This document shows, one piece after another, positions 54,458 through 60,578 of a DNA stretch of 64,000 bases. Source of the stretch: a phage. The stretch lies in sequence record OZ335960.1; one strand, written 5' to 3'. Under the pieces are notes generated by a model. It did not search any database. It had not been told where the DNA came from and was given only the letters and a program-made list of their open reading frames with translations. How positions within the stretch are numbered: the first letter of the stretch is position 1; each line of letters opens with the position of its first letter. A program made the position numbers and the translations under genes.

Positions 54458-54703
54458 TTATTCACCAGTTACTTTCCACAAATCTTCGTTTGCAGCAATC
54501 CATGCATCACGTTGATTTTCTTCGTATACTGTAGTATATGCTGCTTTTTCTGAAGGGAATATCTGATAATGAGCGCCAGAAATTTTGTGAACGTCAGAAT
54601 AAAGAGGGAAAGCTACAGAAATTTCTTTTCCTTCAATTTTCTTATTTCCATCTAATTTCTGCTCAAATGTTTTAATATTAACATAACCGCGAGTACTAGC
54701 CAT
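54458..54703 (-). CDS. soc: small outer capsid protein Soc
   Basis: 81 aa; matches recalled T4 Soc; late promoter TATAAATA upstream. Confidence 0.9.
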   Translation of the reverse strand: MASTRGYVNIKTFEQKLDGNKKIEGKEISVAFPLYSDVHKISGAHYQIFPSEKAAYTTVYEENQRDAWIAANEDLWKVTGE

Positions 54704-54733
54704 GTAATTCTCCTTTTATTTAAATTACATGAC

Positions 54734-54741
54734 TATTTATA
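54734..54741 (-). promoter_or_regulatory. late promoter (TATAAATA) for soc
   Basis: Minus strand TATAAATA about 25 nt before the soc RBS AAGGAGA. Confidence 0.55.
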
Positions 54742-54775
54742 ATAAATTCTCACAGCTTTTAAGCTGTCGTTTATA

Positions 54776-55294
54776 TTAATAACCTCGGTCTTGACGAGCG
54801 AAGTTTTCGGCATTTTTTAGATAATAAAGTTTAAAGATTTCTTCAGCCGTAAGACCGAGACTCTGGAACATGTTCAGAACGAAATGAAGAATATCAATCA
54901 TTTCAAATTTAATTTCCAACTGGTCTTGTGGAGATAAGTCAGTAATCAGAGTTTCACGACGTTCACCGTGTTGAGCTTTCCACGGCTTCCATACAGCAGA
55001 TGCATCTTTTTCGCCATTGCTCATACCACCAAGAGAAGTCAGTAGTTCGCGGAATTCATCATCAATATAATCTTTCTGATTACGCAGCCAATCAACAACT
55101 TCACCTGCGGTAGCCAAATCATCAGGATGACGGTTATATTCAGGTTTATCTTTAGCTAAACGAACCTGCAGAGATTTCTGCATATCAAGCATAACTTGCA
55201 GCGGATCTTTTTCATCACCGAGAATATCCCAGTATTCGTTTTGAGCTTTATCAGCGCCTTCAATCAGTTGTGAACATTCATTAAAGTAAGCCAT
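54776..55294 (-). CDS. 56: dCTP pyrophosphatase gp56 (MazG-like)
   Basis: Track ORF (GTG at 55387) trimmed to ATG 55294 with AAAGGA RBS giving 172 aa. Confidence 0.85.
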   Translation of the reverse strand: MAYFNECSQLIEGADKAQNEYWDILGDEKDPLQVMLDMQKSLQVRLAKDKPEYNRHPDDLATAGEVVDWLRNQKDYIDDEFRELLTSLGGMSNGEKDASAVWKPWKAQHGERRETLITDLSPQDQLEIKFEMIDILHFVLNMFQSLGLTAEEIFKLYYLKNAENFARQDRGY

Positions 55295-55365
55295 TATTTT
55301 TCCTTTCAATTCATGGGTTAGTAGATTAATTATACAATAAATATATAAAGCAATAAGGAGGACAT

Positions 55366-55566
55366 ATGGTACAAAAATTAATGGCACTTGTTAATGCCAT
55401 AAAAGGTAATAAAAGACGTATAGCTTTTACTATTTCTGCTATGGTAGGAATTTTACTTTGGAATTTTATTTTATCACCAATTGCTATTGCTCATGGCGTT
55501 AATATTCCAGTAATTACTCTTGATACATTCGTAGATTTAGCATTTGCTTTAGTTGGGTTAATTTAA
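55366..55566 (+). CDS. small hydrophobic protein on the opposite strand, convergent with gene 61
   Basis: 66 aa; strong RBS AAGGAGG 4 nt before ATG 55366; two predicted hydrophobic helices; 3' end overlaps the gene 61 stop. Confidence 0.4.
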   Translation: MVQKLMALVNAIKGNKRRIAFTISAMVGILLWNFILSPIAIAHGVNIPVITLDTFVDLAFALVGLI

Positions 55567-56591
55567 ATCTTAGCATATTTAGATAGCCGCATTTTAGCCA
55601 TCAACCCTTGAGCAATATTATTTTTCATATATTCCATAATTTGTTCAGGGGTTGCACCTTCCTTTCTAATCATATCATTAACATCTTTTGATTTCCAGGG
55701 AGATTTGTCCCAAAACATAACCCTTTCTCCTGCATCAACTAATTTAGTCATTCGTTTAATAGTGTCAGGGTGACGAGGTTCATTATCTAAAACCCATACA
55801 CGTCTATCTTTAAATGGAACAATTTCTAGGTCTAATTGACCACCCGTAATAGCTATACCATTTTCAATAAAAAGTGAATCTATAGGTCCTTCTAGAACAT
55901 ATACATCACCATCTTTGACTCGTTCAACTCCATAGATTTTTGTTGCCTCAGGATAAGCTTTGATGGTAATATATTTTTGAGGAGCATCTTTCTTTAGTGC
56001 ACGTCCTTGAAAAGACTCAGCTTTTCCATTAGCGTTATAAATTGGAATAACAAGACGAGGCTCAGGTATTTCCTTTTTATATGTTCCTGGCGCTATACTA
56101 TTAACTAATTTAGGCCATTCGGTTGTAAACCAAAGATATTTCCATTTATCCTTTGGAATACAACGAGCTTTTACATATTTTATAATTGGATGGTCTTCCG
56201 CCAGTTTATCTAATCTAATGCATGACGGAAGAGATTTAATTATTTTCTTCTCAGGTTGTTTAGGAAGTTCTTTAGGTTTTTCTACTGGACGACTTTTACC
56301 TTTTTCTTTTCTTATTTCAAAGATATACTCACGATATAAATCGGGTTCAAACTCCTTTAAATATATTCCAATTGGTGCATGATAGTTACAGTTATAACAA
56401 TGAATATTTCCTTCATTATTATCACCATAATACCATCCACGGGCTTTATTTTGGTCGGTTTTTGAATCTCCACAAACAGGGCATCTAAACCGCAATTTAA
56501 AAGTTGAACTATTATTTACTTGTGTGAATTTAGGTAAATGAGCTAATGCACGGTATGCAAACTCATTATCAATCCAAGGTATTGATGACAT
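55563..56591 (-). CDS. 61: DNA primase gp61
   Basis: 342 aa; N-terminal zinc ribbon CPVCGD...CYNCNYH and TOPRIM-like core. Confidence 0.9.
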   Translation of the reverse strand: MSSIPWIDNEFAYRALAHLPKFTQVNNSSTFKLRFRCPVCGDSKTDQNKARGWYYGDNNEGNIHCYNCNYHAPIGIYLKEFEPDLYREYIFEIRKEKGKSRPVEKPKELPKQPEKKIIKSLPSCIRLDKLAEDHPIIKYVKARCIPKDKWKYLWFTTEWPKLVNSIAPGTYKKEIPEPRLVIPIYNANGKAESFQGRALKKDAPQKYITIKAYPEATKIYGVERVKDGDVYVLEGPIDSLFIENGIAITGGQLDLEIVPFKDRRVWVLDNEPRHPDTIKRMTKLVDAGERVMFWDKSPWKSKDVNDMIRKEGATPEQIMEYMKNNIAQGLMAKMRLSKYAKI

Positions 56592-56593
56592 TT

Positions 56594-56758
56594 TTACTCT
56601 TCTTTTTCTTTAGATTCCTCTTTTTTCTTTTTAGGAATCTGTTCAGGACCTTTATTTACTACAGCGCCTGACGTTGTTCCAGTGGAGATATTTTCAGGAT
56701 TACCACCTGAATCTCCAGCGACCATATCTTCTTTAATAAATTCTTTAAACGTTTTCAT
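56594..56758 (-). CDS. small hypothetical protein (61.1 position, below track cutoff)
   Basis: Hand translation MKTFKEFIKEDMVAGDSGGNPENISTG... 54 aa. Confidence 0.3.
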   Translation of the reverse strand: MKTFKEFIKEDMVAGDSGGNPENISTGTTSGAVVNKGPEQIPKKKKEESKEKEE

Positions 56759-56770
56759 ATTAGCCTCTAA

Positions 56771-57064
56771 TTATTCACCTACCACTTCAGCGATGATATT
56801 TTTATTATTAAAGTTTTTATCGCAATACAGAACATAATTATACTGCATTACACCGCCAGACTTAAGCTGTTTTTGCACTTCAACTTTCATTTCAGGACGA
56901 TCACGCTCAACGATATTCATAATATCTGCTTCAATTTGAGTTTCAACCTCAGTCTGATCTGCAGTCATAGACCACTCACACAAATCTTTGTCATAACCCG
57001 CCATAGCAGGCTGAGCAGCGCAAGAAGATAAAGCAAAAATTGCAGCAAAGATAAATTTTTTCAT
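56771..57064 (-). CDS. sp: Spackle periplasmic protein (lysozyme inhibitor, superinfection exclusion)
   Basis: 97 aa with cleavable signal peptide (AQPAMAG); position between 61 and dmd. Confidence 0.75.
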   Translation of the reverse strand: MKKFIFAAIFALSSCAAQPAMAGYDKDLCEWSMTADQTEVETQIEADIMNIVERDRPEMKVEVQKQLKSGGVMQYNYVLYCDKNFNNKNIIAEVVGE

Positions 57065-57122
57065 GATAATCTCCTCAGTAGTTTATGTTTATAGTATCTC
57101 AATTTCCAATAAAAGTAAACAG

Positions 57123-57422
57123 TTATTTTAAAACTTCTGCATAATCGCATGTTACAAACTGTTTCTCTAACTTGACGATTTTACGAAAGTATCTTTTGCA
57201 TTGACGAATCTGTCGCTTCGTAGGGCGCACAGCAAACTTAATAAATTCCACTCGACCAAATGGAGGACTTTCTTCTGCCGGAATATCTAACACCAATTCC
57301 CACGTATCTGCAATAAGTGCTTTAAATTGAGTATTTTTCCTGACGTTATACGGAGTAGGTTTAAATAAAACAATATGCATATTATCCTCGGCAATCCACT
57401 TCGCATACTTTCTTGTCATCAA
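57123..57422 (-). CDS. hypothetical basic protein (61.4 position)
   Basis: ORF track 99 aa; overlaps the dmd start. Confidence 0.45.
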   Translation of the reverse strand: MMTRKYAKWIAEDNMHIVLFKPTPYNVRKNTQFKALIADTWELVLDIPAEESPPFGRVEFIKFAVRPTKRQIRQCKRYFRKIVKLEKQFVTCDYAEVLK

Positions 57423-57564
57423 TGAAAGCTTTAACTAGTGCTTTATTAACTTCAGCATATTGATTAGTAGCCCATTGAACGTCATCTTTCATCATTGTGA
57501 TTTCTTTAGTAAACATGCTTTCGTTCTTAAACCACCCCATAAAAACTACCTTTACCAATTCCAT
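57382..57564 (-). CDS. dmd: Dmd antitoxin (inhibitor of host RnlA/LsoA toxins)
   Basis: 60 aa, matches recalled T4 Dmd; own consensus early promoter upstream. Confidence 0.85.
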   Translation of the reverse strand: MELVKVVFMGWFKNESMFTKEITMMKDDVQWATNQYAEVNKALVKAFIDDKKVCEVDCRG

Positions 57565-57593
57565 AACAATCTCCTCATTTAACCAACAAGACT

Positions 57594-57622
57594 ACTATAC
57601 CATAGTCTTGTCAGCTTGTAAA
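57594..57622 (-). promoter_or_regulatory. T4-type early promoter for dmd
   Basis: Minus strand GTTTACA, 17 nt, TATAGT immediately after the gene 41 stop. Confidence 0.6.
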
Positions 57623-59050
57623 CTAAAATTTTAATTCATTTGCCAAAGCATCTAACTGAGCTCGAGCAGATTCGTTTCTTTGATAGCGATTCTGTTCAGC
57701 CTGAATCTGTTGTGAACCTGCTACTTCGTTCACTTCAGTTGGAGTAGAATCTTGTTCAATTTCTACCCATTTCTGATTTCCTTTTTGAACACCCATTAAA
57801 AACTTATTCCATTTATTCTTATCACCATATCGTGATTTGATTTGCTTAATGAGTTGTTGTTCAGCAGCTGCTAACTCCTCGGTTTCAATGACCGCAAGCA
57901 TAAAATCAGCTGTTGCTGGAAGCCCGGCAGATTCTGCAATATCGCTCATGTTAACATCAGAAGAATCCCAAGCTTGCTTACCAACCTGTGCTGCAGTCCA
58001 AAGAACGGTTTCGGTTTCAACAGCAAGAGCACGCAATTCCTCTGCGATAGCTTTAACAGTCGTGTAACTATTTTCTGAATAAACTCTAATGCGGCAAGAT
58101 TTACAAATACCCAGATAGTCAACAATAATGATTGTTGGAACAAAATTCTTCTTGAGCTTCAATTCATTCAAGAGAGACCTGAATGTATTAGCGTCTGCTC
58201 CACCAGTAGGATACTGTTTAACGATTAAACGACCGAGAGTAGATTTCTCACGCCATTTTTCCATTTTTCCTTTATATTCAGCGTAAGAAATATGCCCATC
58301 ATCAATGTCATCAAGAGAAACATCAAGCATATTAGCATCAATACGCTTAGCACAGACTTCTTCTGCCATTTCCATGGAAATGTAAAGAACATTATGTCCG
58401 AGCTGCAAATAATCTGCTGCTAATGAACACAATCCTAATGACTTACCAACGTTAACACCAGCCATTAAAACGTTCAGTGTTCCAGTTTCAGCTCCGCCTT
58501 TAGTAATTTTATTTAGAATTTTGAGTTTAAATGGAACCTTACGAGCTTTATTCATATAAGATAGCCAACGTGCTTCGTAGTCATCCATCCAATCATGACC
58601 AACGTAACTATCAAATGAAATTGATAATGCTTGGCGCATGATGTCAGGAATAGCACCAACATCCGGCATTTTCTTATTTCGTTTTTCCGGAGGAAGCTCA
58701 GCATTAGTTTGAATTTCAATTATTTTAGATGTGGCGTTAAACATCGCCCTTTGCTGAACATATTTTTCTGTTTCTTTTACTAACCAGCTGTGGTCTTCTG
58801 GAGAATCGGCTAGTTTCGAAATAAGTGTTTTTACACCAGAATATTCTGTTTCAGTAAATGAACTATTTTCTAATGCAACATTTAACGCATTAATAGATGG
58901 AACGCTATGGTACTCATTAACATGAGATTTAATTAATTTGAATGTATTTTTAGCTGGACCACTTTCAAAATATTCTGAATCCATATATGGCCAAACTTTT
59001 GAAAAATAAGCTTGATCAAATATGAGATGAGAAAGAATAATTTCTACCAC
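57623..59050 (-). CDS. 41: replicative DNA helicase gp41 (DnaB family)
   Basis: 475 aa; Walker A GVNVGKS. Confidence 0.95.
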   Translation of the reverse strand: MVEIILSHLIFDQAYFSKVWPYMDSEYFESGPAKNTFKLIKSHVNEYHSVPSINALNVALENSSFTETEYSGVKTLISKLADSPEDHSWLVKETEKYVQQRAMFNATSKIIEIQTNAELPPEKRNKKMPDVGAIPDIMRQALSISFDSYVGHDWMDDYEARWLSYMNKARKVPFKLKILNKITKGGAETGTLNVLMAGVNVGKSLGLCSLAADYLQLGHNVLYISMEMAEEVCAKRIDANMLDVSLDDIDDGHISYAEYKGKMEKWREKSTLGRLIVKQYPTGGADANTFRSLLNELKLKKNFVPTIIIVDYLGICKSCRIRVYSENSYTTVKAIAEELRALAVETETVLWTAAQVGKQAWDSSDVNMSDIAESAGLPATADFMLAVIETEELAAAEQQLIKQIKSRYGDKNKWNKFLMGVQKGNQKWVEIEQDSTPTEVNEVAGSQQIQAEQNRYQRNESARAQLDALANELKF

Positions 59051-59059
59051 ACTTACTCC

Positions 59060-59422
59060 TTAAAAGAATTTAAATTTTTTCTTTGACCTTTTATTAAATG
59101 CATCTTGTAGTTGCATTGTAATACATTTTTCTACATGAGGAGCTAACTCAGCTTTTCTTTCTTGGTCAAGAACAGCAAAGTCCATTACGACTTTTCCATC
59201 AACCCAATCTAATTTTGTCACATACACAATGTGTGTAGAACCGTCTTCTAGTTTAATGACAATCTCCTGGATAACATTTTCCATGGCAGATTTAATTATC
59301 TTAAGAGATTCATTAAAAAGACGTTCTTTTCTTTCTTCTTCCCCCTCCGAAGAGGGGGATTCATCGATAATTTCTAGATCTAAATCTAAATCATCTTTAT
59401 TCATTAAATTCTTCCATATCAC
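59060..59422 (-). CDS. 40: gp40 head vertex assembly protein (positional assignment)
   Basis: 120 aa between 41 and uvsX. Confidence 0.55.
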   Translation of the reverse strand: MIWKNLMNKDDLDLDLEIIDESPSSEGEEERKERLFNESLKIIKSAMENVIQEIVIKLEDGSTHIVYVTKLDWVDGKVVMDFAVLDQERKAELAPHVEKCITMQLQDAFNKRSKKKFKFF

Positions 59423-60578
59423 TTAACTGATCTAGGTCAGTTTCTAAATCAGCTGCTGATTTACTTTTACTTTCTGGAGATTTAAATTTTTCAACCTTTG
59501 AGTTAATCAATTCATCAACTTCAGCTTCAACAATTTCATTACTATCAATAGCACCTAACTGATAAGCACGTTTAATAGCATCTCGGAATGGTTGATGCTT
59601 AAATAAAGGACCCCAGAATGTAGTGCAATTGGTATCTTTTGCACGCCAAGATTTTTCTTCGCGAATCATCTCGCCGGTTTCTTCGTCAAGAAATTCACGA
59701 GCATACCAGCCATTTTTAGGTTTTACCACAAATCCTAATTCAAGAGCCATATCTAACAATCCAGAATAAGGATCGATACCACCGTCAAATTTAACATCAA
59801 TAAAGAATTTACTTTTTTCTTTAACGGTACGAGATTTTTCTACATTTAGAACAAATTGATACCCCTGAAGATCAGAACCATCTTTAATCTGGCGCTTACC
59901 GATAATGAATACAGTATCAGCCGAATACATTACGCCTGTACCACCTGTCATCACGGTTTTACTAAACATTTCAATTGTTTCAATTGTATGGTTAACCGCA
60001 ACACATGGAATGTTTTTAATACTAAAATAAGGAGTAACAATACGGAATAATGACTTCAGTGATTTAGCACGAGTCATATCTGCCACAGATTTTTCATTCA
60101 AGGCATCTTCCGTTTCTTTCTTAGAAGCCATATTACCAATTGAGTCGATGAATACAATAACTTTTTCACCACGCTCAATAGCTTCAAGCTGATTCACCAT
60201 ATCAATTTTCAGCTGTTCAACTGACTGGATTGGTGTATGAATTACTCGTTCCGGGTCAACTCCCATGGATCGCAAATAAGCAGGAGTAATACCAAATTCG
60301 CTATCATAGAATAGACATACCGCGTCAGGATATTTGTTCAAATACGCCGCAACCATAGTCAAAGACATATTTGATTTAAAGTGTTTAGAAGGACCTGCAA
60401 AAATAGTTAAACCAGACTGCATACCACCGTCAATCGCACCTGAAATAGCGATATTAAGCATTGGGATTTTTGTACGGATTACATCCTTTTCATTAAAGAA
60501 TTTAGATGTAGTCAGTTCAGCAGTCATTTTAGAAGTGGAAGCTTTAATCAAACGGGATTTTAAATCTGCAATAGACAT
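59397..60578 (-). CDS. uvsX: UvsX recombinase (RecA family)
   Basis: 393 aa; Walker A GPSKHFKS; matches recalled T4 UvsX. Confidence 0.95.
   Translation of the reverse strand: MSIADLKSRLIKASTSKMTAELTTSKFFNEKDVIRTKIPMLNIAISGAIDGGMQSGLTIFAGPSKHFKSNMSLTMVAAYLNKYPDAVCLFYDSEFGITPAYLRSMGVDPERVIHTPIQSVEQLKIDMVNQLEAIERGEKVIVFIDSIGNMASKKETEDALNEKSVADMTRAKSLKSLFRIVTPYFSIKNIPCVAVNHTIETIEMFSKTVMTGGTGVMYSADTVFIIGKRQIKDGSDLQGYQFVLNVEKSRTVKEKSKFFIDVKFDGGIDPYSGLLDMALELGFVVKPKNGWYAREFLDEETGEMIREEKSWRAKDTNCTTFWGPLFKHQPFRDAIKRAYQLGAIDSNEIVEAEVDELINSKVEKFKSPESKSKSAADLETDLDQLSDMEEFNE

Follow-up and report, generated by a model that had tools for sequence, protein, structure and literature searches.

The stretch at 57123-57564 on the minus strand of phage sequence OZ335960.1 is almost certainly an early operon with two cistrons, dmd and tifA, from a Tequatrovirus phage, located between genes 41 and 61 in the "anti-TA island". 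The whole 64,000-nt stretch of DNA that was analysed, here called the window, is Tequatrovirus (T4-like) sequence, and the operon consists of dmd (gene 61.5; 57382-57564, minus strand, 60 aa) followed by tifA (gene 61.4; 57123-57380, minus strand, 85 aa). [quoted passage not shown] A sequence-only reading of the window had proposed an anti-toxin (anti-TA) counter-defence cluster adjoining gene 41. The cluster was rightly spotted, orthologs of both dmd and tifA being found there, but it is ordinary because the dmd-tifA operon of T4-like phages has already been characterised, and this T4-type locus leaves nothing new to explain. The sequence holds nothing that speaks against this reading.

The gene order on the minus strand is 41, dmd, 61.4, sp, 61.1, 61, and every gene between 54.4 and 60.6 kb is on that strand. 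The upstream neighbour of dmd is gene 41, the replicative helicase (57623-59050, a 475-aa ORF with its TAG stop at 57625-57623), which is itself preceded by gene 40 (about 59060-59404, 114 aa) and uvsX (59397-60578, 393 aa). Downstream of tifA are sp (spackle, gene 61.3; 56771-57064, 97 aa), gene 61.1 (56594-56758, 54 aa), which has an unknown function and a product 98 % identical to T4 gp61.1, and the gene for the primase gp61 (55563-56591, 342 aa), all on the minus strand. A megablast search with 56500-57700 gave 503 records at 90-99 % identity, from T4-like (Tequatrovirus-type) phages whose isolation hosts are mainly Escherichia, Shigella and Yersinia. Alignment of the window with T4 gave two blocks of 93.6 % and 96.6 % identity, and the block at 56770-60566, gene 41 included, is collinear with T4 at about 93.6 % nucleotide identity. 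The IMG/VR relatives referred to below comprise five loci, enough for the frame test but too small a sample for statistics on residue 41 of TifA or on adfA.

Several other differences from T4 were seen in the window. Searches with the T4 genes as queries gave no match to dam, segF or segA in the window, and in the interval 54464-55563 dam and segF are missing from their syntenic sites, soc adjoins gene 56, and gene 56 adjoins gene 61 across an interval of about 175 bp. The dCTPase gp56 is 73 % identical to its T4 counterpart versus 95-100 % for the products of flanking genes, a mosaic pattern. The ORF listed for gene 56 (203 aa, GTG start, 54776-55387, minus strand) is over-extended, and T4 gp56 (171 aa) aligns from 55294.

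The first cistron was correctly recognised in the sequence-only reading as a 60-aa Dmd matching the known RnlA/LsoA inhibitor. Its product differs from T4 Dmd at a single residue (59/60 identical; T34N), scores 153.9 bits against the Pfam Dmd family PF17587 (cut-off 27), matches phrog_2102, and matches chain B of PDB entry 5HY3, the solved LsoA-Dmd complex, with an E value of 9.6e-37. Dmd positions 22-23, 32 and 45, neighbouring T34N, are also variable among relatives. The dmd Shine-Dalgarno sequence, GAGGAG at 57571-57576 on the minus strand, is invariant in T4 and the five relatives. Dmd is an antitoxin mimic, a phage antitoxin that inhibits the HEPN RNase toxins RnlA and LsoA (PMC9391042, PMC8266594), and the window Dmd would be expected by analogy to inhibit both.

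The second cistron encodes an 85-aa protein that is 84/85 identical to T4 gp61.4 (E 4e-64), with I83V as the sole difference, and that matches Pfam DUF7279 (PF23945) at 72.7 bits (cut-off 24.5) and phrog_2375 at 2.4e-38. As judged from its sequence, what had been described as a 99-aa basic ORF is the ortholog of T4 gene 61.4, tifA, and is the anti-ToxN factor itself; its earlier designation as a new candidate inhibitor "by analogy" with the T4 anti-ToxN factor is superseded by this orthology. The comparison with T4 61.4/TifA that had been proposed as a check gave 99 % identity. The description of a basic ORF at the 61.4 position was accurate, with a pI of 9.8, 17 K+R vs 9 D+E in 85 aa, and the same place as T4 61.4. 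Several deposited Tequatrovirus genomes encode a TifA 100 % identical to that of the window, and an identity of 99 % or more is reached by 88 records. No solved TifA structure was found in the PDB at E values up to 1. The TifA of one IMG/VR relative (L006:3001-3330) diverges past residue 74 and ends at 80 aa, with unrelated sequence between its end and sp, and is a natural C-terminal tail variant.

The early promoter of the operon is located at 57622-57594 on the minus strand and comprises TTTACA (57622-57617), a 17-nt spacer, TG and TATAGT (57599-57594). It is of the sigma-70/T4-early type, with 10/12 matches and the TG before the -10, was the best site in the region in a promoter scan, begins one base past the gene 41 TAG, and is identical to the dmd promoter of T4. 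Both hexamers are invariant in T4 and the five IMG/VR relatives, and the spacer bases alone differ, in one relative. An early promoter of dmd's own directly past the gene 41 stop, as had been claimed, was confirmed in this way and is documented in T4. The same scan found no promoter-like site at the dmd-tifA intergenic junction, the strong promoter being upstream of dmd only; tifA has no promoter of its own and comes second in the operon, after dmd. The bicistronic transcript and the transcription start of the window phage would be those expected from T4.

A probable second early promoter, upstream of sp, was read from the sequence in the tifA/sp interval at 57091-57120 on the minus strand (GTTTAC and TACTAT with 17 nt between them). 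This putative site is below the threshold of the scan tool and is conserved in relatives, except that directly past its -10 the window has a 2-bp deletion when compared with T4 and four of the relatives. For T4, the literature mentions a promoter downstream of tifA (PMC9391042).

A hairpin with a 15-bp stem and a 6-nt loop is located at 57581-57616 on the minus strand, 7 nt past the gene 41 stop, and overlaps the dmd promoter at its spacer and -10. Its minimum free energy is -18.9 kcal/mol (z = -4.37; 0/200 shuffles fold as well), and all three stem substitutions in T4 and the relative L003 preserve pairing, with pairs assigned by eye. It is not followed by a U-tract, and it is not a canonical terminator, since a terminator scan of 56500-57750 detected no intrinsic terminators. 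The hairpin could form solely in read-through transcripts from gene 41, to which it may contribute a 3'-end or stability function; a separate and improbable reading is that this conserved hairpin couples the 3' end of the gene 41 transcript to dmd-tifA expression.

Downstream of tifA, Spackle is present where it had been placed by the sequence-only reading: the ORF at 56771-57064 scores 152 bits against T4_Spackle (PF25676; cut-off 27), and its product is 95.9 % identical to T4 Sp, a 97-aa periplasmic protein with a signal peptide, the hydrophobic N-terminus being readable from the sequence. Gene 61.1 directly follows sp because adfA (61.2) is missing, leaving a gap of 12 nt (56759-56770). A tblastn search with T4 gp61.2 found no adfA homolog anywhere in the 64-kb window, and 615 bp of T4 (L001 2143-2757) have no counterpart, the junction being at 56769/56770. 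A full or divergent copy of adfA is present in all five IMG/VR relatives, and 79 of 479 phage-collection records span the junction at a coverage of at least 80 %. True adfA-less alleles among the listed records are those of KNP1, RB7, NIC06P2 and phiC600P9, a minority of deposited phages; T2 and JoYop, also among the listed records, have an insert of about 358 bp at the adfA site instead. The T4 "anti-TA island" consists of dmd, tifA and adfA, the last encoding the anti-DarT factor (PMC9391042). The absence of adfA predicts a DarTG-sensitive phage.

An alternative to an ordinary T4-type operon is that the allele set (TifA I83V, Dmd T34N and no adfA) has consequences of its own or, separately, that the hairpin acts as a coupling between the gene 41 3' end and dmd-tifA. 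If true, the allele set might mean that the range of toxin-antitoxin systems the phage can evade differs from that of T4, with possible sensitivity to DarTG and an altered specificity of Dmd for RnlA vs LsoA. This alternative is considered improbable.

A second alternative, for which the probability is very low, concerns the length of the second protein. The sequence-only reading gave it 99 aa and an overlap with the dmd start. This length and the overlap arise because the ORF caller extends each frame as far as possible, to the first ATG, GTG or TTG past a stop, which in this case is the TTG at 57422, inside dmd. If that TTG were used, an N-terminally extended isoform of 99 aa with a function of its own would be made, with its N-terminus overlapping the end of dmd. 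Upstream of the ATG there are indeed 18 stop-free codons in this frame in the window, T4 and four of the five relatives, and a TTG with an ATG directly after it is present in the window, T4 and those same four relatives; however, by our own estimate 14 codons without a stop are fairly often expected by chance. There is no Shine-Dalgarno sequence at TTG 57422, and instead GAGGA is found at 57389-57385 (minus strand), in the last two sense codons of dmd and 4 nt before the ATG at 57380, where it is invariant in T4 and the five relatives. The dmd TAA (57384-57382) is separated from this ATG by a single T, which is a typical coupled junction. In the fifth relative, L002, the extension frame is interrupted by an in-frame TAG while dmd and the 85-aa TifA are both intact, and substitutions at the other four variable sites in the extension leave Dmd unchanged but alter the residues read in the extension frame (K>R, Y>C, V>A). 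The match to the PHROG profile begins at residue 1 of the 85-aa protein, the T4 annotation is 85 aa, and deletion of the T4 tifA ATG abolishes activity (PMC9391042).

The 99-aa TTG start was rejected on the position of the Shine-Dalgarno sequence, the L002 stop, the substitution pattern, and the T4 annotation and ATG-deletion experiment, and the 14-codon extension (57381-57422, minus strand), which is the dmd 3' end, was judged non-coding in the tifA frame. The true tifA start is ATG 57380, giving 85 aa and no coding overlap with dmd. The other positional statements of the sequence-only reading need correction as well, as in the direction of transcription the extension would touch the 3' end of dmd and not its start, and the ORF precedes dmd only in plus-strand coordinates and follows it in transcription.

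The biology of TifA has been described for the T4 protein and its homologs. Expression of tifA alone is enough to bring back plating on toxIN hosts and protects cells against ToxN; the active agent is the protein and not the RNA, and a recoded gene is still active (PMC9391042). A 2023 study showed that both ToxN and RNA are bound by TifA, that ToxN thereby becomes trapped in a large ribonucleoprotein complex that notably contains 16S rRNA, and that TifA needs the helix-cap residues P53 and T54 and the basic-helix residues K55, R56 and R59 to bind RNA and to inhibit ToxN (PMC10853763). Residue 41, in a loop at the predicted ToxN interface, tunes TifA potency, F being weak and S or H strong (PMC10853763). 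The functional residues F41, P53, T54, K55, R56 and R59 are all present in the window TifA, which reads AVRPTKRQIRQ across the Pro-Thr helix cap and the basic cluster that follows it, and I83 is within the C-terminal tail, a segment that RB69 TifA is without. From its 99 % identity to T4 TifA we infer that the window protein binds ToxN and RNA and neutralises ToxN. In the weakest alternative the target of the 85-aa protein has changed, and the locus has a new counter-defence specificity, directed at another toxin or abortive-infection system instead of ToxN. Such a change would be in keeping with the differing range of ToxN proteins neutralised by TifA homologs (distant ones neutralise none of those tested) and with general RNA and nucleic-acid binding by TifA (PMC10853763), but it has almost no probability given the single, conservative change from T4 TifA, in a tail absent from the active RB69 homolog, the T4-like behaviour of T2 and T6 TifA, which are >96 % identical to T4 TifA (PMC10853763), and the presence unchanged of every residue shown to be important.

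For the dmd-tifA operon as a T4-type locus, the following course of events is proposed, with the mechanisms of Dmd and TifA carried over by analogy from the literature on the T4 and RB69 proteins at 98-99 % identity. Host RNA polymerase would start at the early promoter past the gene 41 stop, as suggested by the identity of this promoter to the mapped promoter of T4, and the early bicistronic mRNA would yield Dmd (60 aa) followed by TifA (85 aa). As the labile host antitoxins decay after infection, Dmd would replace them and block RnlA or LsoA, so that phage mRNA is not degraded. TifA would use its basic C-terminal helix (PT cap, K55, R56 and R59) to contact RNA and a surface including the residue-41 loop to contact ToxN, and ToxN held in this way on bulk RNA such as 16S rRNA would leave phage transcripts uncut. 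T4 gains escape from plasmid-borne toxIN through tandem amplification of dmd-tifA (PMC9391042). In the window tifA and dmd are each present in a single copy, and the locus accordingly bears no sign of passage on toxIN hosts. Because of the F41 allele and the single-copy locus, the phage should behave like wild-type T4, escaping toxIN at chromosomal level and being restricted by toxIN at plasmid level.

The result has little importance beyond correct annotation. The tifA/anti-ToxN name and the 85-aa start can now be transferred to database entries: of the 25 listed rows at an identity of at least 96.5 % to the window TifA, 17 have "hypothetical protein" as their sole label. The clean absence of adfA indicates that the content of the anti-TA island varies among close relatives of T4, and this variation is relevant to host-range prediction for therapeutic T4-like phages on hosts with DarTG, ToxIN or RnlAB.

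Compared with known systems, the window follows the T4 reference annotation order (41, dmd, 61.4, sp, 61.2, 61.1, 61) except for 61.2: the T4 anti-TA island has the same order and place of dmd and tifA between genes 41 and 61 and the same sp and 61.1 neighbours, and has adfA, which the window is without. T4 Dmd (gp61.5; PF17587; 5HY3 chain B) has the same length, promoter and ribosome-binding site as the window Dmd and differs from it at residue 34 only (T34N). T4 TifA (gp61.4; DUF7279/PF23945) likewise has 85 aa and immediately follows dmd, the stop-T-ATG junction and the Shine-Dalgarno sequence being identical, and it shares the F41 allele, PT cap and basic helix with the window protein, the sole departure being I83V, which is itself found in many deposited Tequatrovirus genomes. 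RB69 TifA belongs to the same family and has the same RNA-dependent ToxN inhibition, but the RB69-type proteins are about 56-57 % identical, tail-less, carry H41 and are stronger inhibitors, whereas the window protein is of the weaker T4 type.
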